Source: Candidatus Magnetomicrobium cryptolimnococcus | Lineage (GTDB): Bacteria; Nitrospirota; Thermodesulfovibrionia; Thermodesulfovibrionales; Magnetobacteriaceae | NCBI GenBank assembly: GCA_018606805.1 | Contig: JAGYWI010000020.1 | Location: 1-43,289, forward strand | Length of the DNA stretch: 43,289 bases | Direction of reading: 5' to 3' | In this document: in pieces, positions 438 through 43,132 of the stretch | Position numbering within the stretch: the first letter of the stretch is position 1 | Layout of the letters: every line of letters starts with the position of its first letter | Notes under the pieces: model-generated | The model's database searches: none | Seen by the model: only the letters and a program-made list of their open reading frames with translations | What the model was told of the DNA's origin: nothing | Translations under genes and position numbers: made by a program

Positions 438-2480
438 TTAAGGGCTAAAAAATTGATAGCTATTTCTTTCTCCTTGTTTAACGTTATACATAGCAATATC
501 CGCCTTTTTAATTAATGTGTCGGCATCTGTACCATCGTAAGGATAAAGACTTATACCAATACTTGTACCAATATTACAATTATATCCATTAACATTAAAC
601 GTTCTACAAAGTGTATCTATGATTTTTTTAGCTACATTTGCAGCATCTTCTTTTGTTACTACAGAAGACAATACTACAACAAACTCATCTCCCCCTAAAC
701 GAGCCACCGTATCGGAATCTCTAATGCAGCTTATGATGCGTTTAGCTGATGCCTTAAGTAGTAAATCCCCTGTTTCGTGTCCTAGAGTATCGTTTACATG
801 TTTAAATTTATCAAGGTCTAAAAACAATAATGCAGCTGTGTAGTTATAGCGTTTAGCTATTGATAAAGTCTTGTTTAAAAACTCAAAGAGCATTTTACGG
901 TTAGGAAGACCTGTCAGATTGTCAAAATAAGCCATCTGTTTGAGTGCTTCTTCGTATTCCTTTTTTTCTGTAATATCATCTACAACGTTAATGAACTCCT
1001 TTTTGCCATCCTCGGTTGTGTAAAATGTAGAATTAACGGATGCCCAGAAGACCGAACCATCTTTTCGTTTAAATCGTATCTCGTACTGATAAATAGGACC
1101 TTCATTACACAAGGTACAAAAGTTATACAGATCATCAGGACTAGTAAATATATTTTCAACAGGTACCTGTAAAAACTCTTCTTTAGAGTTATAACCAAAC
1201 ATCTTTAATATTGTGTCATTCAGTTCTTTTACTACAAGCTGAGTGCCGGGACCTGTAACCTTTACGCCCGTTGGTAAAATGTTCATCAAGCCCTTATATT
1301 TTTCTATCATGGCCTTATATTTTTCTATAATATTATTTAAGTTTGCAGCCAGCCAATCAAAAGCCCTTGATAGCTCTCCTATCTCATCCTTAGCATCAGT
1401 ACCCACTTTTATATCAAATTTACCCTCTGCCAATTTCTTTATACCTTCATGCAGTCTTTTTATTGGTAGTATAATGGTATGGACAATATAGTAGAGCAAT
1501 AATACTGAGACCAAACACATTATAATCATTATGGCAATATACAAAATTAATGTACTGAAGGCTTCATCTTTTAAGTTTTTTGCAGTGATTAATAAATCAC
1601 TTGAAAGTTTGTCTTCAATTTCTTTAAGGACGTTTATTTTATTTGTTTGGATTTTAAACCAATAGGTAGGGTCAACACCAAAATTCCCCTCATTAGCCTT
1701 TTCAAAGGCAACGTTTCTCATACTGTTAACCTCTGTTAGGGCGCTTACAGATAGTTTATTTTTATAAAATGTTTTTTGTTCATCTGTTGCAAAGGTAAAA
1801 AACACCTTTTCATATGTATCTTGCGCAGCTACTAAGGCACTAAACTTGACAAACATACCTTGCCCAAACTTATTGGAGAAAAATGTATCACTTAGTAAAG
1901 CACGCTCAATGCCAGCCATATCTTTAAATTGTAAGAAATTCACATATATAAAAATCTGATTGTTCAGTTGAGCATTTTTACTTACATGTAACATATGCAC
2001 GATAACATCCAAAAAAGCAGCATTCATATCAGTGTAGTAATCTAAGGTATCTGCAAAAGAGATGTCATGGACAAGCATTTTTTCCCTCTTTTGAGCAATC
2101 TGCTTAAACCAAGCCAAGGCGCTATTTAACTTAGAAACAAATTCTTTACCGTAAGCTGTGCCTGTAAATCCTTGTAAAAACGTATTCAGCTCAGAATACC
2201 GTACATCTGTATCTTTTCTTTGAGCAGCTATGCAACCTTTAAATATTTCTCCTTTACTGCCAATATAGGCAGCCGTAAGCCCGCGTTCCTTTTGAGTTTC
2301 GTGAATCAATGCACTAATCTTTACAGAAAGATTGACAAACCCTTTCAACCGTTCCATATCATATAGCACTGTTGATTTTTCCTGAAGATTTTTTAAGGAA
2401 AAAAACAACAATCCCAACAGTGGAAACACCAATAATAATAAAAGTTTGTTTCTGAATTTCATATCTTCTAAAAAAGCCAT
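438..2480 (-). CDS. Membrane sensor diguanylate cyclase: NIT-like periplasmic domain, TM/HAMP, PAS, GGDEF
   Basis: N-terminal hydrophobic segment, a central TM (IAIMIIMCLVSVLLLYYIV), and a HAMP-like region. The ectodomain has NIT-like features (HETQKERGLTAAYIGSKG). A PAS-like block is present and the C-terminus has an intact RLGGDEF motif with the upstream DxLTGLPNR motif. Confidence 0.8.
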   Translation of the reverse strand: MAFLEDMKFRNKLLLLLVFPLLGLLFFSLKNLQEKSTVLYDMERLKGFVNLSVKISALIHETQKERGLTAAYIGSKGEIFKGCIAAQRKDTDVRYSELNTFLQGFTGTAYGKEFVSKLNSALAWFKQIAQKREKMLVHDISFADTLDYYTDMNAAFLDVIVHMLHVSKNAQLNNQIFIYVNFLQFKDMAGIERALLSDTFFSNKFGQGMFVKFSALVAAQDTYEKVFFTFATDEQKTFYKNKLSVSALTEVNSMRNVAFEKANEGNFGVDPTYWFKIQTNKINVLKEIEDKLSSDLLITAKNLKDEAFSTLILYIAIMIIMCLVSVLLLYYIVHTIILPIKRLHEGIKKLAEGKFDIKVGTDAKDEIGELSRAFDWLAANLNNIIEKYKAMIEKYKGLMNILPTGVKVTGPGTQLVVKELNDTILKMFGYNSKEEFLQVPVENIFTSPDDLYNFCTLCNEGPIYQYEIRFKRKDGSVFWASVNSTFYTTEDGKKEFINVVDDITEKKEYEEALKQMAYFDNLTGLPNRKMLFEFLNKTLSIAKRYNYTAALLFLDLDKFKHVNDTLGHETGDLLLKASAKRIISCIRDSDTVARLGGDEFVVVLSSVVTKEDAANVAKKIIDTLCRTFNVNGYNCNIGTSIGISLYPYDGTDADTLIKKADIAMYNVKQGERNSYQFFSP

Positions 2481-19261: not shown

Positions 19262-19846
19262 CTATCCAATCCATACTGTCTTTTTAAAATCCTTCATCCC
19301 TTCTACCAAATGATTAGTTGTTCCTCTAAAGCCAACCAACAAGCTATCCTCCAGACCGTAGTGTTTTAGACATGTGCCACAGGAAAATATTTCAACCCCC
19401 ATACTTTCGAGTCCTTTTAGGATTTTCAGGATTTCATTATCACTTGTTGTAATTTTTACACCGGTATTTAAGAAAAATATAGAATTTGGGATTTCACCCG
19501 TTACCTTCATAGTTTCAAACATACCTTTCATTAATATTTTACCAAGCTCTTCATCTCTACCGATTGCATGGCCTGCAACCACTAAAAATAATGACTTATC
19601 GGTATCGCTTGTTTCATTTGGCTGGGTGCTGCATTGAAAACCTTTAACTATTTTTATTTTCCAGTAATTATCAATTTTTTGAGTTTCGGCGTAAAGACCA
19701 CTTTTTTTAGCAAATCTAACTACATTATTGGAAGATGCCTCATTATCAACCAGGACATCCACTGTACCTTCCTCTATACTGTTAAGACCTTCTTCTGCCA
19801 TCATTACAGGTTTAGGGCAGCCAAGCCCCCTTGCATCAATCAACAT
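19262..19846 (-). CDS. YedF-like protein (TusA/SirA-like N-terminus with CPxP motif fused to a DsrE/DsrF-like domain)
   Basis: ARGLGCPKPVMMAEEGL is a TusA-type CPxP motif. The C-terminal half is DsrE-like with a conserved Cys (FSCGTCLKHYGL). Confidence 0.6.
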   Translation of the reverse strand: MLIDARGLGCPKPVMMAEEGLNSIEEGTVDVLVDNEASSNNVVRFAKKSGLYAETQKIDNYWKIKIVKGFQCSTQPNETSDTDKSLFLVVAGHAIGRDEELGKILMKGMFETMKVTGEIPNSIFFLNTGVKITTSDNEILKILKGLESMGVEIFSCGTCLKHYGLEDSLLVGFRGTTNHLVEGMKDFKKTVWIG

Positions 19847-19886: not shown

Positions 19887-21392
19887 TTAATCCTGATGAC
19901 CGTTATCGGACATTGTTTGGATAAAATTATTTATGTAAAAGATTATCTCTGTTGAAAGCTCTGTGAATTGACATCCAAACAATAAATAATCGTATGTTTC
20001 GCTTATATTTTTTATATTAAACTGTAAATTTTCAATAGTTTTATCTAATATTCTAAACGTCAGATAGTAATCTTTATTTATGCTATACCCTTTATAGTTG
20101 GCTTTGGGTAATTTTAACATGCAGCCTGCTGTACTTATATTTATTATGATAACTTCTGTTGTAGTTATGTGTTCCATATCAAATATGATAGCAAGTATAT
20201 TGGCTTGGAATCTGTTTTCTTTTCTTTTTAGTGTTTTTTGCCTTTTAAAAATACCGTAGCCCCACAGTTGATGACGATTGATTGCAACGTAGAATCGTTC
20301 AGAGGGTATGACCTCAACGATATTATATGCGTTATCTGAGGTATCTCTGCGAAGTGGTATCATAGAACGATAGCCGTTTGAACGCACAACAATGTGCACG
20401 ATAGGCGTATACACTTTATTGCCGCGCTGGGTTACAACCCCCAGCTCGTTACTTTTAAGTTTAACGTATGACCCGGGCGGGTATATCCCCAGGTTTTTGA
20501 CAAAGATATTAGCTAACTCTATTTCTGAGATTTTTTCACCTTCAAGGAATATCTGTCTTATTGCTGCATCTGGCAGTAGTGGAGGGCGATAATCTCTACC
20601 GCTAACCCTTGCACAATAAATATCAGCCATTTTGATAACCCGCGCAGGCTGCAATATAGCATCCCCTTGCAATCCAAAAGGATAGCCGCTTCCGTCGGCT
20701 GATTCATGATGCTGAAGGACTGATTCTAACCATATTTCATCCTTGATGCCATATTTGCGCAAGATTTCTAATCCTTTTTCAGGGTGTAAGTGTACTATTT
20801 TTTGTTGATTTTCGCTTAACTGTTCTTCTTGTTTTAAAAGTAAATCCTGCAGCTCTATCATACCTATATTCATAGTTATGGCAGCGCATATTGTGGACAA
20901 TCTTATCTCTTGGTTCCACCCGAGGGATTTGCCTATTATTTCACACACTATTGCTGTTTGCAGCGAATGTTTTACGGAGTAGCGTGTATTGTGGCTCATC
21001 ATAATAGTGCCAAGACACAGGTCCTCATCTTCTACGCATACTCTTTGGATAGTTTTCGCTATATTTACAAATTTAGGCTCAAACTCTGTCAGATTATTAA
21101 TATTATGAAAATAGTTATCCAGTTGTAAAAGGGCAAAGTCTATCAAGTCAAAAGGCGAATCCTCAGCTTCTACTACTACTTCTTCGGCCGATGGCTCTGT
21201 TGGTATGTTTTTATTATTTTCCCCTATTCCTTCTATTTCTAGGGAGTTTAAAATCTTCATCCGGTCTACATCTTTAAAGACAAAGCCTTTATTTAGCATA
21301 AGCTCACCGTGGTCATCCACCACAGGCTCTGTTATAGGCTCACCTACATTGATTTTCTGTTCCTTTATGCGTCTTGGTCTCATTTTTTCCAA
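19887..21392 (-). CDS. HD-GYP domain protein with C-terminal PilZ domain (c-di-GMP phosphodiesterase/receptor fusion)
   Basis: A HHESADGSGYPFGL GYP motif is present. The second HD-type metal-binding motif appears replaced (AITMNIGM where HDIGK is expected). C-terminal RKENR...NISTAGCML matches the PilZ RxxxR...(D/N)xSxxG motifs. Confidence 0.7.
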   Translation of the reverse strand: MEKMRPRRIKEQKINVGEPITEPVVDDHGELMLNKGFVFKDVDRMKILNSLEIEGIGENNKNIPTEPSAEEVVVEAEDSPFDLIDFALLQLDNYFHNINNLTEFEPKFVNIAKTIQRVCVEDEDLCLGTIMMSHNTRYSVKHSLQTAIVCEIIGKSLGWNQEIRLSTICAAITMNIGMIELQDLLLKQEEQLSENQQKIVHLHPEKGLEILRKYGIKDEIWLESVLQHHESADGSGYPFGLQGDAILQPARVIKMADIYCARVSGRDYRPPLLPDAAIRQIFLEGEKISEIELANIFVKNLGIYPPGSYVKLKSNELGVVTQRGNKVYTPIVHIVVRSNGYRSMIPLRRDTSDNAYNIVEVIPSERFYVAINRHQLWGYGIFKRQKTLKRKENRFQANILAIIFDMEHITTTEVIIINISTAGCMLKLPKANYKGYSINKDYYLTFRILDKTIENLQFNIKNISETYDYLLFGCQFTELSTEIIFYINNFIQTMSDNGHQD

Positions 21393-21407
21393 ATTCTTAA
21401 TGCTTAG

Positions 21408-22376
21408 TTAGGCATTTATTGCTGACTTTATTTCATCATCGAGGGTAATTTTATTACCACCGCCTTTTTTACTAATCTCCATCAACTGTTGAGCACGACT
21501 TCTTAGTTGAAATATAGTTTCCTTCTTTTTAGCAAGCGTTGCACCTATGGAAACAAATATTGGCACAGCCCTTTCGTTTACTTTATATTTACATGTTTCA
21601 GCTATTCTTCTTGAGCGCTCAGCTATTATTGGCAGCGTATCTTCATTGACATTTGCAAGTATCATTGTAAATTCCGACTCATCCCATCTGCTTATTGTAT
21701 CGTAGGGTCTTACGCTTTCAGCTAAGGCCCCAGCGACTATTTTTATTATACTATTTCCATGCACTTTACCGATAGTTGACGATATTCTTTCTATATGATC
21801 TATGCTAAGAAATATGAGACCAAAAGGCCATCCATACCTCATCCACTCATTAAATCTCGCCTTTAAATTTATCTCCGCATACTTCCTATTTCCAAGCTCT
21901 GTTAGAGGGTCTATCAAATTAAGGCTACGCAGTTTTGTAAACTGTCGCTCAAGTTTTATCTTTTCTGCATTTTCAATAAAAACAGCAATAGCCCCTAATC
22001 GCTGCCCTTTGTCGTCTTCTACAGGATTCACTTTTAGTATAACTGGGACTTTTTTCTTTTCCTTATTGTATAAAAACACTTCCTCTGTTTCTGGTACGCC
22101 ACTTAGCATCACCTTACTTATTAAATCATCACCATTACTTACATTTATACCCATTCCATCGGCATATCGTATAATCCCACTAAAATAATCCTTTCCAACC
22201 ACGTCAGATATATCATACCCTACTAGCTTTTCGGCTTCTTTATTCCAGTATCGTATAATCATCTGCTTATCAACAAACAGTACTGCTTGCAGTTGACTAT
22301 CAATCAATAGTTTATAAAAATTATTTTCCTCTATGTTATCCATATTCATCATCTTCCTACTTAACACACAACACAC
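21408..22376 (-). CDS. PAS-GGDEF-like protein with a degenerate active site (SRWDESEF in place of GGDEF)
   Basis: N-terminal PAS-like fold. The GGDEF-domain scaffold is conserved (DPLTELGNRKY, Ploop-like region) but the signature reads RWDESEF. Confidence 0.65.
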   Translation of the reverse strand: MCCVLSRKMMNMDNIEENNFYKLLIDSQLQAVLFVDKQMIIRYWNKEAEKLVGYDISDVVGKDYFSGIIRYADGMGINVSNGDDLISKVMLSGVPETEEVFLYNKEKKKVPVILKVNPVEDDKGQRLGAIAVFIENAEKIKLERQFTKLRSLNLIDPLTELGNRKYAEINLKARFNEWMRYGWPFGLIFLSIDHIERISSTIGKVHGNSIIKIVAGALAESVRPYDTISRWDESEFTMILANVNEDTLPIIAERSRRIAETCKYKVNERAVPIFVSIGATLAKKKETIFQLRSRAQQLMEISKKGGGNKITLDDEIKSAINA

Positions 22377-22650
22377 CCATTACAAAGGTCCCAAAATACT
22401 ATCTGACGCACTATCTGCGACATTATCATTGTGATTTACATTGATTAAACAACTATCTATGATTTACAATCAATCATATTTGCTTTTATAAAAATAGACG
22501 CCACGCAGCACCTCTTAACTTAAAAATTACCTAAAACTCTAATTATAGTATATAATATTCTAATATTATGCGTCAAGTAAAATTTTTATTTACACATATT
22601 GATAATATATTAGTGAAATTAGAGCCCCATTCTAAATAGGTGTTATTAAT

Positions 22651-22679
22651 AAGAAAGAGGTATTGAGAACCTCTCTCTT
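22651..22679 (-). terminator. Candidate terminator hairpin after the adhesin gene (AAGAGAGAGG-loop-CCTCTTTCTT on the transcribed strand)
   Basis: A 10-bp stem with one mismatch lies 18 nt downstream of the 22697 stop. It is followed on the minus strand by an A/U-rich stretch. Confidence 0.35.
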
Positions 22680-22696
22680 ATTAAATATTATAAACA

Positions 22697-25600
22697 TTAC
22701 TTAATCTCTATCTTACTTTGAGCAGTTGTAAACTGCACATTGATAACTACTAATCCTATATCAATAATAGCTTTAGGGTCAGTTGCAAGAGACGATATTT
22801 TATTCGAGTCTACAAAGCCAGTAGCATGATATTTACCGTTTGAACAGTTAATATCTGATTTATTAGTAACCAACCCCACATCTACTAACGTACCATCGGA
22901 GTTTTCAAGAAGAAGTTTAGTTGTAACATTCATGGTATTACCCGTACAATCAATACCTGTAACGTCAGCCTTAATCTGTGTTTCACCATTTTTGAAGACC
23001 ACATGTGCTTTTATGTCAGACATAGCACTTTCTTTTTGTACCTCAGCCTGTGCGTTAGCATCAGCAGCAGCATCTGTATCTGTTTTTACATCAGATTCCG
23101 AAGGGGTATCGTCAAAGTTTATTTTAAATTTAGATATAGTAAATGGATTGTTATTTGGTTTACCTGTATCTGTCCCTGTTGTAAAACCAAATTTGATTGT
23201 AGACATAGTGTCATAGTGCATATAAAAACACTTATCTATAAAAGGTGATTCATCTAAATAATCTGTTGACAACTTGTTACTATCTGGCGCGTCAATCCAT
23301 ACCTTATATTCAGCATAGTTTCCAGCACCGGTATCGCAATTACTACATGTATTGCCACCATCTGGGCTTGCACACCCTGTATGAAGTTCTATCCTAACTG
23401 TGTGCAAGTTGGCATCTTCAAGCCATATAGGTCCAGTAGTACCATTTTTATGGCAACACCCTGACCAACAAGTATAGTTCCCGCTATCAGCCGTTGGTGG
23501 ACAAAGTGGATTTGCAGGCAGCGATATAACTGTATGGTTATTATTACCATTAAAAACCATTGCCACATGATTTTTTTCTAAACCATAGTACTGTGATGAC
23601 TCATAATAAAAATCCTTTGTCCCAGAATCTGGATACATATCAAATTCCAAACCCAAACTGTATCCACCTATATTATTACCTACACTATTATTCTTCCTAC
23701 CATAACCAAGGCCATTACCAGGTCCTCCACAAGTGCTCACTGCCCTTTCGCCCTCAATCATAGCAAATACAAAACCACCTTTATAGTCTGTGCTATTTAA
23801 GCTGCTATCACCATCATCGGATTCATCGTCGTCATCGGACTTTTTGTCTTTATCGCTTTTATCTTTATCGGAGTCCTTATCGTCATCATCGTCATGCTCC
23901 GATAATTTGCTTTTATCTTTATCAGTCTTGTTTTTGTCATCATCGTCATCATCGTCATGCTCTGATAATTTGCTTTTATCTTTATCAGTTTTGTTTTTGT
24001 CATCATCGTCATCGGATTTTTTGTCTTTATCGCTTTTATCCTTATCGGAGTCCTTATCGTCGTCATCGTCATGCTCCGATAATTTGCTTTTATCCTTATC
24101 AGTCTTGTTTTTGTCATCATCATCGTCATCGGACTTTTTGTCTTTATCGCTTTTATCCTTATCAGTTTTGTTTTTGTCATCATCGTCATCATCGGATTTT
24201 TTGTCTTTATCGCTTTTATCCTTATCGGAGTCCTTATCGTCGTCATCGTCATGCTCCGATAATTTGCTTTTATCCTTATCAGTCTTGTTTTTGTCATCAT
24301 CATCGTCATCATCGGACTTTTTGTCTTTATCGCTTTTATCCTTATCAGTCTTGTTTTTGTCATCATCGTCATCATCGGATTTTTTGTCTTTATCGCTTTT
24401 ATCTTTATCGGAGTCCTTGTCGTCGTCATCGTCATGTTCTGATAATTTGCTTTTATCTTTATCAGTCTTGTTTTTGTCGTCATCGTCATCGTCGGATTTT
24501 TTGTCTTTATCGCTTTTATCTTTATCGGAGTCCTTGTCGTCGTCATCGTCATGTTCTGATAATTTGCTTTTATCTTTATCAGTCTTGTTTTTGTCGTCAT
24601 CGTCATCGTCGGATTTTTTGTCTTTATCGCTTTTATCTTTATCGGAGTCCTTGTCGTCATCATCGTCATGCTCCGATAATTTGCTTTTATCTTTATCAGT
24701 TTTGTTTTTGTCATCATCATCGTCATCATCGGACTTTTTGTCTTTATCGCTTTTATCCTTATCGGAGTCCTTATCGTCGTCATCGTCATGCTCCGATAAT
24801 TTGCTTTTATCCTTATCAGTCTTGTTTTTGTCATCATCATCGTCATCATCGGACTTTTTGTCTTTATCGCTTTTATCTTTATCGGAGTCCTTATCGTCAT
24901 CATCGTCATGCTCCGATAATTTGCTTTTATCTTTATCAGTCTTGTTTTTGTCATCATCGTCATCATCGGACTTTTTGTCTTTATCGCTTTTATCTTTATC
25001 GGAGTCCTTATCATCGTCATCGTCATGCTCCGATAATTTGCTTTTATCTTTATCAGTCTTGTTTTTGTCATCATCGTCATCATCGGACTTTTTGTCTTTA
25101 TCGCTTTTATCTTTATCGGAGTCCTTATCGTCATCATCGTCATGCTCCGATAATTTGCTTTTATCTTTATCAGTTTTGTTTTTGTCATCATCGTCATCAT
25201 CGGACTTTTTGTCTTTATCGCTTTTATCTTTATCGGAGTCCTTATCGTCATCATCGTCATGCTCCGATAATTTGCTTTTATCTTTATCAGTCTTGTTCTT
25301 GTCATCATCATCATCATCGGATTTTTTGTCTTTATCGCTTTTATCTTTATCGGAGTCCTTATCATCGTCATCATCGGTCGTATCTTTACCATTTTTATCA
25401 GAATCCTTATCTTTGCTATCTTTACCGGCTTTATCAGAATCATCATCGGACATTGTATTTTTCAGAAATTTATCAAAATCATCATCACTGTCTGAATCAT
25501 TATCATCTTTACTGCTATCATTACTTTTTGTTTCACTTTCGGCATAAGCCGCCTGCATCTCAAAATATATCCTTGTAGTTTTATCTTTTATCGGACATGA

Positions 25601-26707
25601 AGTTGCTGAACACGGTGAAACAGTATTTTGTCCATCTGGAAACCACACACATCCCCACAAATCATTTGCGTTGACACTCTGCTCAGTTGATTCCTCACCA
25701 ACCTTTAAAGTTTTAGAACTAGTATCTTTCGTTATAGCCGAACTATAACCTTCATATTCTGCAAAATGCTCAAGCGCTTCATCAAAAGAAATCTCCGAAT
25801 CATTAGAACCACCATCATCATCACCTCCCCCCTCACTACAATTAGTGTTCACTGCAAGGGATAGTGTCCTTTTAGCGGTATTTGCTATTGGCGAGTCGCT
25901 ATCCATCACCATCAGTGTAACTTGCGTTGATGGAGCCGTTGCCGCAGAAGCGGAGCCTAACTGCACGTTGGCATATGGCGTTGACCACGTTGGACAAGTA
26001 GTAGAAGGCATTACTGATAACCAGCTCGGTACAGAACCTTCTATACACCATTTATAATTAGTCTCATTAAATGGCACACCACCTTCGGCGTAAATAATAG
26101 CTGCATAATTCGTACTGCCGACACAAACGCTTGGTAGCTCATTATTTAATATTATGAGTTTTCCTCTTGTTTTACCATAACAACCTATTTTTTGCTGCAA
26201 ATCCTGCAGGCTCAAATATTGATACACATCACTGGTACTTAGGCTTACAGTTGTAAATGAGGTAATACCTTGTTCCGAAGCAGATGAGATATTTGTAGAA
26301 TTTAGCGCCGTATCCTCCCCTTTACTTATAATGGCGACAGCTACGGCTTTACTTTCCCCTGATACGGATAAGACCGTATTACTGTTTCCACAAATGTTAT
26401 TCGTGGATGCAAGCTCATTTGCATATACATATATTAGGGGTTGATTATATTTATCGTTTTTTACAATAATGGAAGTTGGCAGCTTCTTATTTTCAGTTGC
26501 ATAACTTATAATATAATTAATATTATCTCCAATAACGTCTGAGGTAGCAGTTATAACCCCTTTTTTCGTTTTTGGTGTAACCGACATAAGCCCTATGCTT
26601 GTTACAACAATCAAAAGCCCTAACGCTACAATTAAACCTATGCTGCCGGCTCTATTTGTAATATAACTTTCCATATGTTTTATTTTTTTATAGTAATTTA
26701 TAAGCAT
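22697..26707 (-). CDS. Giant modular pilin-like adhesin (1336 aa): N-terminal TM helix + pilin-paralogue module, ~530-aa poly-acidic D/K/S tandem-repeat stalk, L-type (legume-like) lectin domain, C-terminal beta domain
   Basis: The first ~300 aa are clearly paralogous to the adjacent 309-aa pilin (IISYATENKKLPTS / IIGYTAQNKRLPTS; STNNICG; KIGCYGKTRGKLIILNNELP...STNYAAIIYAEGG / QIGCSGEPLRIINNELP...GTNYNAAIYVEGG; YKWCIEGS / YKWCLDTS). The lectin block GGFVFAMIEGE...GGYSLGLEFDMYPDSG...KNHVAMVFNGNNNH...IKFGFTTGTDTG matches the legume-lectin signatures (GGxLGLF; VAVEFDTxxN...DP..HIGIDVNS; VGFSATTG). Confidence 0.8.
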   Translation of the reverse strand: MLINYYKKIKHMESYITNRAGSIGLIVALGLLIVVTSIGLMSVTPKTKKGVITATSDVIGDNINYIISYATENKKLPTSIIVKNDKYNQPLIYVYANELASTNNICGNSNTVLSVSGESKAVAVAIISKGEDTALNSTNISSASEQGITSFTTVSLSTSDVYQYLSLQDLQQKIGCYGKTRGKLIILNNELPSVCVGSTNYAAIIYAEGGVPFNETNYKWCIEGSVPSWLSVMPSTTCPTWSTPYANVQLGSASAATAPSTQVTLMVMDSDSPIANTAKRTLSLAVNTNCSEGGGDDDGGSNDSEISFDEALEHFAEYEGYSSAITKDTSSKTLKVGEESTEQSVNANDLWGCVWFPDGQNTVSPCSATSCPIKDKTTRIYFEMQAAYAESETKSNDSSKDDNDSDSDDDFDKFLKNTMSDDDSDKAGKDSKDKDSDKNGKDTTDDDDDKDSDKDKSDKDKKSDDDDDDKNKTDKDKSKLSEHDDDDDKDSDKDKSDKDKKSDDDDDDKNKTDKDKSKLSEHDDDDDKDSDKDKSDKDKKSDDDDDDKNKTDKDKSKLSEHDDDDDKDSDKDKSDKDKKSDDDDDDKNKTDKDKSKLSEHDDDDDKDSDKDKSDKDKKSDDDDDDDKNKTDKDKSKLSEHDDDDDKDSDKDKSDKDKKSDDDDDDDKNKTDKDKSKLSEHDDDDDKDSDKDKSDKDKKSDDDDDDKNKTDKDKSKLSEHDDDDDKDSDKDKSDKDKKSDDDDDDKNKTDKDKSKLSEHDDDDDKDSDKDKSDKDKKSDDDDDDKNKTDKDKSDKDKKSDDDDDDDKNKTDKDKSKLSEHDDDDDKDSDKDKSDKDKKSDDDDDDKNKTDKDKSDKDKKSDDDDDDKNKTDKDKSKLSEHDDDDDKDSDKDKSDKDKKSDDDDDKNKTDKDKSKLSEHDDDDDDDKNKTDKDKSKLSEHDDDDDKDSDKDKSDKDKKSDDDDESDDGDSSLNSTDYKGGFVFAMIEGERAVSTCGGPGNGLGYGRKNNSVGNNIGGYSLGLEFDMYPDSGTKDFYYESSQYYGLEKNHVAMVFNGNNNHTVISLPANPLCPPTADSGNYTCWSGCCHKNGTTGPIWLEDANLHTVRIELHTGCASPDGGNTCSNCDTGAGNYAEYKVWIDAPDSNKLSTDYLDESPFIDKCFYMHYDTMSTIKFGFTTGTDTGKPNNNPFTISKFKINFDDTPSESDVKTDTDAAADANAQAEVQKESAMSDIKAHVVFKNGETQIKADVTGIDCTGNTMNVTTKLLLENSDGTLVDVGLVTNKSDINCSNGKYHATGFVDSNKISSLATDPKAIIDIGLVVINVQFTTAQSKIEIK
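23800..25400. repeat. Intragenic near-perfect tandem repeat, ~13 units of 117 bp (39 aa: KDSDKDKSDKDKKSDDDDDDKNKTDKDKSKLSEHDDDDD) with shorter 63-bp variants
   Basis: Units are nearly identical at the nucleotide level (gataatttgcttttatctttatcagtcttgtttttgtcatcatcgtcatc... recurs). The repeat generates long stop-free artefactual ORFs in other frames. Confidence 0.9.
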
Positions 26708-26732: not shown

Positions 26733-27662
26733 CTATGTAGGATTAAGGGTAAGTACAAACGTTTTTTCCGAGCAGTTACCATCACCATCTCTGACAAAAA
26801 CCTTTATTCTATAAGAGCCTGTTTGTGAATTACTTGAGCCAGCTCCTATTATCTGTACATTACTTGCACTTGCCCACGTAGTGTCAACCGATGATGAGCA
26901 GTTGGCCGGCACTACACAGCCGGGTGTTGGGTCTGTATAGCCACCCGGATAATTTGAAGTATCCAAACACCACTTATACATAGAAGTGTTTGAACCGCCT
27001 TCAACGTATATGGCGGCATTATAATTAGTTCCAGCATACCCATACGGTAGCTCATTATTTATAATGCGTAGCGGCTCACCAGAACAGCCTATTTGTGTCC
27101 TTAGCTCTCCAAGTGTTGTCCATATTACGATGTCATCATACGTAGTATCACCTATTTTTTCATTCTTATACACCATAATAGGGCTACTTGATGTATTTGT
27201 TTCAAGTATATAATCGCTGCCATTACTTGCAGCAAGGAAGGCTATGTTTTTTATATCAACATAATCAACGTTAGCAGTGCCAGAGGCACAGTTTGAGTTA
27301 TCTATACAACTGCGCACCGTTACAGACGTTGTCTTTCTACCGCATATGTTATTTGTGCTTCCAAGCGTGCTATCAATCAAATAAAGCAGATTTTGGTTCC
27401 ACCCATCTATCGCCTTTGTAACTACCCCTTTAAATTCGCTTGAAGTGGGTAATCTTTTGTTTTGTGCCGTATAACCAATAACAGACTCACGTGCAGCATC
27501 TACGATATTTTTGGTTTTATTGACATTTTGCATATCTATTAGAGGGCCTAATAGATTAGCCCCCATGCCAAGGATAATACCAACGATGACCAACACAACG
27601 GCCATTTCTATCAGGGTTAAACCGTCTTGTAAACGCAACACTACTTTGCCTTGCTTAAACAT
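26733..27662 (-). CDS. Type IV pilin-like protein (309 aa) with class III signal peptide
   Basis: The N-terminus LQDG-LTLIEMAVVLVIVGIILGMG is a prepilin cleavage/methylation motif (G|xTLIE with Glu at +5). A long globular domain with several Cys pairs follows. It is paralogous to the N-terminal third of the downstream giant protein. Confidence 0.8.
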   Translation of the reverse strand: MFKQGKVVLRLQDGLTLIEMAVVLVIVGIILGMGANLLGPLIDMQNVNKTKNIVDAARESVIGYTAQNKRLPTSSEFKGVVTKAIDGWNQNLLYLIDSTLGSTNNICGRKTTSVTVRSCIDNSNCASGTANVDYVDIKNIAFLAASNGSDYILETNTSSSPIMVYKNEKIGDTTYDDIVIWTTLGELRTQIGCSGEPLRIINNELPYGYAGTNYNAAIYVEGGSNTSMYKWCLDTSNYPGGYTDPTPGCVVPANCSSSVDTTWASASNVQIIGAGSSNSQTGSYRIKVFVRDGDGNCSEKTFVLTLNPT

Positions 27663-27743: not shown

Positions 27744-27798
27744 CAATTTTTAGGCAATTTTTAGGCAATTTTTAGGCAATTTTTAGGCAATTTTTAGG
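27744..27798. repeat. Perfect tandem repeat, 5 x 11 bp (CAATTTTTAGG)
   Basis: 27744-27798 lies ~80 bp upstream of the 309-aa pilin start. It sits between the small pilin gene and the pilin-lectin pair. Confidence 0.9.
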
Positions 27799-27864: not shown

Positions 27865-28440
27865 TTACCACACCCTTACAGAGGCATCCCGGTTTGAGCC
27901 AGTTAATCCATTACACACGGCTGCGTTACCGGCGGCATCAGTATAGTCATCATTGCCTGGAGTCGCTCCATCGCCTCGTACGTAACCCGTTGTGTTATAA
28001 CCGTCATCAAGGGTTATGTCAAGAATACATAAGGTTTGATCTATGCCGTTATCAGTGTGCACACATTTCATACCAGAGCTTGTACTATATGTGTCTTCTG
28101 TATAGCCGGAGTTTGAGCTACCTGTACAATTTTGTAATGCCCACGTTGTGCCATCTGAAAATGTGAAATCATTTGAAGAAACACCACCTTCTGTAACCAA
28201 TGCTGATTGACTGGCTGGTAATGAGCTGTATTTGGCATAATACGACGCCACAGCAGTTTGGATTTTATTAATTCTTTGTATATCAGCCTTCTTATTCGAT
28301 GTATCTATTAGCGATATACCTTTTACTGCCATACCAATAATTATTCCTATAACAACGAGCGCTATTGCAAGTTCAATCAACGTAAAACCACTACTTTTTG
28401 TAATTTGCATCCGATGCAAATACACACTAATCTTTTTCAT
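27865..28440 (-). CDS. Type IV pilin / pseudopilin (191 aa), candidate major subunit
   Basis: KSSG-FTLIELAIALVVIGIIIGMAVKG is a canonical prepilin peptidase motif (G|FTLIE). It is followed by a small Ser/Thr/Gly-rich globular domain with two Cys near the C-terminus (a D-region-like disulfide). Confidence 0.8.
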   Translation of the reverse strand: MKKISVYLHRMQITKSSGFTLIELAIALVVIGIIIGMAVKGISLIDTSNKKADIQRINKIQTAVASYYAKYSSLPASQSALVTEGGVSSNDFTFSDGTTWALQNCTGSSNSGYTEDTYSTSSGMKCVHTDNGIDQTLCILDITLDDGYNTTGYVRGDGATPGNDDYTDAAGNAAVCNGLTGSNRDASVRVW

Positions 28441-43067: not shown

Positions 43068-43132
43068 CAGGGAGGTGTGCCTTCACACCAGGGAGGTGTG
43101 CCTTCACACCAGGGAGGTGTGCCTTCACACCC
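43068..43132. repeat. Second tandem array (3 units) of the 21-22-nt CAGGGAGGTGTGCCTTCACAC hairpin unit
   Basis: Same unit and the same trailing CTTGAAC(C/T)CCAAAA(A)CACCAT as the array at 17164-17370. It lies immediately 3-prime of rlmD. Confidence 0.85.

Follow-up and report, generated by a model that had tools for sequence, protein, structure and literature searches.

On a 43,289-nucleotide (nt) contig of Candidatus Magnetomicrobium cryptolimnococcus (JAGYWI010000020.1; the whole stretch is called the window), two adjacent minus-strand genes, A and B, encode proteins with degenerate GGDEF and HD-GYP domains. With moderate confidence, we regard A and B as a conserved two-gene, non-catalytic receptor and adaptor module for c-di-GMP (cyclic dimeric guanosine monophosphate), which here would form, together with a YedF gene, a three-gene operon with its own promoter and terminator. 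Gene A (21408-22352, 314 amino acids (aa) from the likely start ATG 22352; open reading frame (ORF) 21408-22376, extending to GTG 22376) encodes a PAS-GGDEF protein that has a degenerate, apparently inactive catalytic centre. Gene B (19887-21383, 498 aa from ATG 21383; ORF 19887-21392) encodes a DUF3391-like N-domain, a degenerate HD-GYP domain (MN-GYP), a beta-barrel and a PilZ domain. ATG 21383 is also the start of B in the NCBI record, and protein P0001 is 100% identical to B. The pair lies on one strand next to an adhesin gene, as a first-pass annotation of the window had stated. A is identical (100%) to a partial protein (P0121) of Ca. Magnetoovum sp. WYHC-5, a magnetotactic, uncultured representative of the Nitrospirota, a contig of which (L087) has the gene order A-B-YedF-glgA-MVP-like, matching the window (MVP, major vault protein).

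Pfam identifies a PAS domain (1.2e-9; PAS/PAS_9, 21972-22319) and a GGDEF domain (1.1e-25; 90.7 bits, cut-off 23.8; 21450-21914) in A, and the GGDEF fold is also matched by TIGR00254 (78.7 bits). The unusual signature SRWDESEF, pointed out in the first-pass annotation, is real. In HMMER alignments to solved cyclases, isRWDESEFtmil is placed opposite laRFGGEEFvamv (RWDESEF opposite RFGGEEF), with DESEF (21669-21683) replacing GGEEF, and the GG(D/E)EF active site of diguanylate cyclases is lacking. The losses are wider than the annotation had noticed. The Mg/GTP contacts are also gone: DxDxFKxxND reads SIDHIERISS, GHxxGD reads GKVHGN and AKxxGRN reads SKKGGGN. Since every class of residue needed for cyclase chemistry is missing, A is most likely not a turnover enzyme. 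An RxxD I-site, overlooked in the annotation, is intact (RPYD, 21699-21710), five residues upstream of the signature (RPYD-TISRW-DESEF). A dead A-site with an intact RxxD at this distance is the sequence pattern of degenerate receptors, and on this ground A is most likely a c-di-GMP receptor via its I-site rather than a cyclase.

Only three degenerate A sequences were found, namely the one in the window (DESEF), one on the Logan contig L005 (DENEF, 56% identical) and one in Ca. M. chiemensis (contig L086; DETTF, 40% identical). Like the active relatives, all three have preserved RPYD. At 28-39% identity, the relatives are PAS-GGDEF proteins of ~300 aa with canonical motifs. A search of JGI metagenomes for further degenerate orthologues gave 80 best loci, all 28-38% identical, of which 78 have a canonical GG(D/E)EF; a B homologue adjoins the A relative in none of the 80. 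A is degenerate exactly where it lies next to B, and its active relatives are unpaired; pairing with B and the catalytic loss of A therefore go together, and catalysis appears to have been lost from A solely in the lineage that pairs it with B. The degenerate motifs are no quirk of the GGDEF domains of this genome, since a NIT-HAMP-PAS-GGDEF gene in the window (438-2480, minus strand) reads a canonical RLGGDEF with an RDSD I-site. This gene probably encodes a nitrate/nitrite-responsive active cyclase. The PAS domain shows a separate feature: a Cys triad (C-x16/17-C-x3-C; corresponding to ~22130-22210 in the window) is common to the active-looking A relatives and the M. chiemensis orthologue. 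The window A has lost all three Cys and the L005 protein retains two; the triad may be a metal or redox site.

B matches Pfam HD_5 (1.4e-21), HD (1.6e-9) and PilZ (2.6e-6). Its HD-GYP domain spans residues ~120-298 (20490-21026). In the alignment to PmGH (4MCW), aaitMNigM of B is found opposite aapmHDigK, so that H221/D222 correspond to M171/N172 (20868-20873) and K225 to M175. The metal ligands H189, H250, H276, H277 and D305 of PmGH are kept as H139, H200, H225, H226 and D254. The first-pass annotation had correctly noticed MN and HHESADGSGYP (20679-20711), in which the HHE and GYP motifs are intact, but the motif replaced by MN is the name-giving HD dyad and not a “second” HD motif. Compared to class II phosphodiesterases, B has the HD-GYP fold, the remaining ligands and HHExxDGxGYP, and lacks the HD dyad and the Lys. 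Each of the PmGH substitutions H221A, D222A and K225A abolishes activity (PMC4159591). The HD-less proteins PA2572, VC1087, VCA0895, ECA3548 and DvhD are inactive as well (PMC3749722, PMC4212101, PMC13090378, bioRxiv 10.1101/2021.11.05.467447). Because the HD dyad is absent in B and PmGH H221A and D222A are inactive, and with the cyclase residues gone from A, the pair is most likely not a turnover enzyme pair, in agreement with the annotation; judged from its motifs, B is most likely non-hydrolytic.

Several candidate residues for ligand binding are retained. The stretch MADIYCARVSGRDYR (20586-20630) holds D254 (PmGH D305), C257 (PmGH D308) and R263/Y265/R266, equivalent to the c-di-GMP contacts R650/Y652/R653 of DvhD (PMC13090378). 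Together with Y234 (DvhD Y621), these contact positions are conserved in 114-120 of 120 homologues. DvhD itself, in which SQ stands for HD and MN for HH, is a tight, metal-free binder of c-di-GMP that cannot hydrolyse it (PMC13090378), and PmGH crystals with only one of three irons still bound c-di-GMP (PMC4159591). The C-terminal PilZ domain (19905-20228), which the annotation had recognized, matches Pfam PilZ at 28.1 bits, above the curated cut-off of 22.5. It has the PilZ fold and both motifs, RxxxR (RKENR, 20211-20225) and (D/N)xSxxG (NISTAG, 20124-20141). Three candidate c-di-GMP sites survive in the pair: the A I-site RPYD, the PilZ motifs of B and the HD-GYP contacts R263/Y265/R266/Y234.

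An AlphaFold2 (AF2) model of B was built on 120 homologues, with a mean predicted local distance difference test (pLDDT) score of 88.4. It can be divided into an N-terminal part, composed of a small beta domain and long helices, the all-helix HD-GYP part (~77-298), a beta-barrel (306-359), a disordered linker with RxxxR (379-388) and the PilZ barrel with a C-terminal helix (392-493). Comparison of the model with known structures gave figures of 21.6 for Bd1817 (DUF3391-HD-GYP), 19.2 for DvhD's HD-GYP domain with c-di-GMP bound, 17.5 for PA4781, 17.4 for PmGH and 12-15 for PilZ proteins; Foldseek was concordant. The N-domain is covered by the structural match to 3TM8, while Pfam PF11871 (DUF3391) gave no match at E <= 1. 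The beta-barrel between HD-GYP and PilZ (20259-20486) is common to the PilZ-less proteobacterial homologues. Neither part had been described in the first-pass annotation. B is soluble and, according to Pfam, has no REC domain.

The annotation had implied that HD degenerated to MN recently. The MN state is instead a trait of the whole family. HD is absent in all 120 best database homologues, ~117 of which read MN. Searching 1.84 billion cluster representatives with B and without a profile retrieved 742 proteins at E <= 1e-30, and the family counts about 740 clusters (50% identity). In an alignment of 151 sequences (the window protein and the 150 best cluster representatives), the HD position reads xN in 135 (MN in 92) and HD in 7, and the Lys is kept in only 2. 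H200, H225 and H226 are each kept in 150 of these sequences, D254 in 146 and GYP in 140; GYP is also present in 120/120 members of the best-homologue set and in 117/120 of a separate alignment. The near-invariance of His, Asp and GYP alongside xN indicates purifying selection on a non-catalytic site. Judged from this pattern, B belongs to an old family selected for something other than hydrolysis and is no freshly broken enzyme. A soft-metal site, with Met171, Met175 and Cys257 for His, Lys and Asp, was considered and weakened, as these positions vary in the wider sample (M/A/S/Q/C, M/I/L/V and C/S/T/A).

Among GTDB species-representative genomes, relatives of B turn up in 506 stretches. The hosts are Nitrospirota as well as Beta- and Gammaproteobacteria (for example Rhodanobacter, Dyella, Frateuria and Sulfuriferula). 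Most members are ~375 aa long and end after the beta-barrel. The PilZ fusion is limited to the Magnetobacteriaceae branch, 23 of whose 25 clade members retain RxxxR; the motif is also preserved in the PilZ-bearing cluster representatives. In Ca. Magnetominusculus xianensis, two HD-GYP(MN)-PilZ paralogues (507 and 495 aa) lie in tandem (contig L004, 10001-13019).

A is located directly upstream of B in three Magnetoovum-type genomes, with gaps of 24 nt (window), 7 nt (L005) and 35 nt (L086). On L005, a 7.5-kb contig of a close relative, the six-gene order pilin-pilin-adhesin-A-B-YedF is repeated at 55-71% amino-acid identity. In Ca. M. chiemensis (L086), the pair lies between glgA/SDR (short-chain dehydrogenase/reductase) upstream and ComM-like/ZorA-like genes downstream, and no pilins and no YedF are found in its flanks. 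The YedF gene of the window (19262-19846; TusA and DsrE-like, TIGR03527 195.9 bits against a cut-off of 110) starts 40 nt after B in the same orientation. It also follows B in L005, is absent in L086 and is probably the third gene of the operon. The putative c-di-GMP operon would thereby include a sulfur/selenium-carrier-like “selenium metabolism” protein.

Putative transcription signals bracket this unit on the minus strand. The adhesin stop codon is followed immediately by a hairpin (22646-22684; 16-bp stem, -20.8 kcal/mol, z = -4.06) that has no clean U-tract. A promoter-like TTGACG-N18-TATACT (22547-22576) lies ~195 nt upstream of A, and TTGACG-N18-TATATT is found ~188 nt upstream of A in L005, both as consensus matches only. 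In L086, a strong hairpin (z = -5.27) lies upstream of the gap preceding A. After YedF, a GC-rich hairpin followed by a T-run (19208-19224; fold z = -4.69) is the likely terminator of A-B-YedF. These hairpins, together with promoter-like sites at consensus level, suggest that A-B(-YedF) is transcribed as a unit of its own. No riboswitch or other known RNA reached the threshold in the 320-nt gap between the adhesin gene and A or in the whole window. A further terminator-like hairpin in the A leader (22496-22513) was dropped, being no better than shuffled sequence (z = +1.17).

In the mechanism that we propose, neither A nor B would turn over c-di-GMP. B would be a double receptor. Its PilZ domain is predicted to bind c-di-GMP through RxxxR and NxSxxG, and its HD-GYP domain, devoid of the HD dyad and the catalytic Lys, would keep enough residues (Arg/Tyr/Arg, the GYP Tyr, four His, one Asp and one Asn) for binding, possibly with one residual metal, and not for hydrolysis. 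The GGDEF domain of A would contribute only the RxxD I-site, the site used by degenerate-GGDEF receptors. It is assumed that A and B act as one complex, modelled on the HD-GYP (RpfG)-GGDEF-PilZ complex of Xanthomonas and operating by protein contacts instead of catalysis. c-di-GMP could occupy sites of as many as three kinds (the I-site, the pocket of HD-GYP and PilZ), and their occupancy would alter the conformation or the partners of the complex. In the window genome and its closest relative, the type-IV-filament adhesin system is a candidate target.

Several points weigh against such a module. A DxD tripeptide reportedly forms the contact between GGDEF and HD-GYP domains in Xanthomonas. This tripeptide is absent from the GGDEF domain of A and from that of the L086 orthologue, and active relatives read DID or DVD. 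The phosphate contact K582 of DvhD is M175 in B. The four conserved His of B would be superfluous for a metal-free receptor like DvhD, so the site may serve otherwise; the cluster hints at a residual metal site. Finally, B homologues are solitary in Magnetobacterium, Magnetominusculus and Proteobacteria, and A is thus generally dispensable for B. For the B family, binding, inactivity and the A:B interaction are predictions.

The first-pass annotation had assigned the pair to the adhesion locus. The window is chromosomal (gyrA, parAB, kdsB, pyrG, era and recO are all encoded there), and the minus-strand order is pilin (27865-28440), pilin (26733-27662), 1336-aa pilin-like “adhesin” (22697-26707), the 320-nt gap, A, B and YedF. 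The pair could then be a dedicated effector of the adjacent pilin/adhesin genes, co-regulated with them and controlling pilus or adhesin display by c-di-GMP. Adjacency on one strand and the recurrence of the six genes in L005 speak for this, as do the ties of PilZ, HD-GYP and GGDEF proteins to type IV pili in Xanthomonas (PMC3749722) and the control of adhesin retention by a degenerate HD-GYP in Desulfovibrio (PMC13090378). We nevertheless consider it doubtful. Pilins and adhesin flank the pair in only two of the three genomes (window and L005), since Ca. M. chiemensis keeps A and B without them, and L005 comes from a close relative, so the shared order may reflect recent common ancestry. Moreover, the gap, the strong hairpin and the promoter-like site separate the adhesin gene from A, and no pilus motor or assembly genes are present in the window. 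A functional tie of the pair to the adhesin may exist, but the proposed link is weak.

The 1336-aa protein has no family match. Its gene carries ~12 copies of a 117-nt (39-aa) Asp/Lys/Ser-rich unit (23942-25372), and the L005 orthologue, with 630 aa, lacks the repeat. The N-terminus reads G↓SIGLIVAL, without Glu5 and without a hidden Markov model match. No homologues of the C-terminal domain (~230 aa) were found in Pfam, NCBIfam, PDB or database searches; a resemblance to legume lectins is an idea only, and the single-sequence AF2 model is unusable (pLDDT 34). The genes 26733-27662 and 27865-28440 both encode the prepilin cleavage/methylation motif G↓(F/L)TLIE (signals G↓LTLIE and G↓FTLIE; Pfam N_methyl, TIGR02532) and are type IV pilin-like. 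In the gap between them (27744-27798), five perfect tandem copies of the 11-nt CAATTTTTAGG are found, with a period of about one helical turn, which could be a regulatory or phase-variable element.

A and B might also be functionally unrelated neighbours, with B acting alone, as the family does elsewhere, and A being a relic or an I-site receptor in its own right. That the whole B family has a conserved GGDEF partner was considered and rejected: only 13 of 85 B-family loci have a GGDEF ORF nearby (up to 8 kb away), at varied positions and orientations and in no consistent arrangement. The Magnetobacterium and Magnetominusculus orthologues likewise have no GGDEF neighbour. This explanation is unlikely, however, because the 7-35 nt spacing is kept in three genomes despite differing flanks and the catalytic loss of A is confined to the lineage paired with B.

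It is very unlikely that B is a cryptic enzyme whose His4/Asp/Asn site, holding one metal, hydrolyses c-di-GMP, pGpG, cGAMP or another nucleotide. H139, H200, H225, H226, D254 and N172 are indeed near-invariant, beyond their conservation in the metal-free DvhD, and HD still occurs in the seven representatives mentioned above. However, the single substitutions H221A, D222A and K225A each suffice to inactivate PmGH (PMC4159591), and the HD-less HD-GYP proteins tested are all inactive (PMC3749722, PMC4212101, PMC13090378). That A and B are decaying, functionless pseudogenes, as the number of catalytic residues gone from both might suggest, is effectively refuted by the conservation data: both reading frames run unbroken over their full length, the same non-catalytic motifs recur in orthologues of 40-64% identity, and the AF2 model of B is confident.

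Beyond the non-catalytic module, a bolder extension can be formulated, although it is improbable as it stands. The xN-GYP proteins might constitute a class of nucleotide receptors that derives from HD-GYP, is ancient and has gone unrecognised, with one metal sub-site (His3 and Asn, with His/Asp beside it), in which binding is metal-assisted or redox-sensitive and no hydrolysis occurs. In Magnetoovum, the PilZ fusion and the operon link to an I-site-only GGDEF protein would then have produced an all-receptor version of RpfG-GGDEF-PilZ, a multi-site c-di-GMP switch for the type-IV-filament adhesin.

Further features were noted. The glgA gene (17586-19055, plus strand; 519-1748 on L086) stays <=1-2 kb from the A-B pair in WYHC-5 and Ca. 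M. chiemensis, with other flanks differing. An MVP-like gene (14620-17082, plus strand, 820 aa) matches the Pfam major-vault-protein shoulder domain (1e-25) and the Vault_3 repeat (4e-8), and this bacterial MVP-like gene is also present on the WYHC-5 contig L087. Between the MVP-like gene and glgA (17160-17356), the 21-nt unit CAGGGAGGTGTGCCTTCACAC forms 9.3 tandem copies. It occurs again 26 kb away (43068-43131, 3 perfect copies) and is a dispersed intergenic repeat.

Only a handful of degenerate HD-GYP proteins have been studied (DvhD, PA2572, HnoD and ECA3548). Through this locus, a subfamily of HD-less HD-GYP proteins comes into view that is large, conserved and apparently unstudied, and the surviving residues of which are clear mutational targets. 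In one lineage, all three types of c-di-GMP domain are united in what is probably one operon. Provided that A and B bind both c-di-GMP and one another, the pair would serve as a compact model, with its genes linked, for a complex whose demonstration in Xanthomonas was laborious, and would open a first window on how uncultured magnetotactic Nitrospirota use c-di-GMP for signalling. Should the adhesin not be under the control of the pair, the case would be an ordinary one of degenerate signalling domains.

Among known systems, the RpfG - XC_0249/XC_0420 - XC_2249 complex of Xanthomonas campestris, like A-B, joins HD-GYP, GGDEF and PilZ (PMC3749722). RpfG binds two GGDEF proteins by way of its GYP motif and brings in a PilZ protein, which makes contact with PilT and PilU; cyclase activity is not required, nor does the PilZ protein have to bind c-di-GMP (PMC3749722). 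GYP is intact in both RpfG and B, and the output of the complex is type IV pilus motility, with pilin genes adjoining A-B in the window. In contrast to Xanthomonas, B fuses PilZ to HD-GYP, the GGDEF partner A is encoded in the same operon and both “enzyme” domains are dead. A-B also lacks a REC or diffusible signal factor (DSF) input, A lacks DxD and no PilT/PilU gene is found nearby.

DvhD of Desulfovibrio vulgaris (PDB 9RBZ/9RC0), a membrane dCache-PAS protein, has lost the HH pair and binds without metal (PMC13090378), whereas B is cytoplasmic, keeps HHE and four His, has lost the Lys contact and carries PilZ. The membrane location and Lap-like operon of such systems are not shared by B, and no LapG- or LapE-like genes are present in the window. 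PA2572 of Pseudomonas aeruginosa (YN-GYP) and VC1087 and VCA0895 of Vibrio cholerae resemble B in that they lack the HD dyad, carry Asn where the Asp would be and keep GYP. Although inactive, they have regulatory phenotypes (PMC3749722, PMC4212101). In contrast to B, all three are without PilZ, and PA2572 is a REC protein reading YNIGK, with the Lys kept.

ECA3548 of Pectobacterium atrosepticum has HT for HD, ANE for HHE and a YcgR-type PilZN-PilZ unit, and HnoD is a further inactive HD-GYP regulator like it (bioRxiv 10.1101/2021.11.05.467447). B, in comparison, keeps HHE and sits in a different, much larger family. The Bd1817 family (DUF3391-HD-GYP) is the reverse of B, as Bd1817 keeps HD and is without the GYP Tyr. 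A resembles PopA, PelD and SgmT, in which the A-site is dead and an intact RxxD I-site binds c-di-GMP (PMC3749722, PMC3509222); in A, such binding is predicted. Unlike those proteins, A has a single PAS input in 314 aa and is paired to an HD-GYP/PilZ protein. Each element of A-B has a precedent; what is new is the size and uniformity of the xN-GYP family, the PilZ fusion in Magnetobacteriaceae and the operon of a dead GGDEF, a dead HD-GYP and a (predicted) live PilZ domain.

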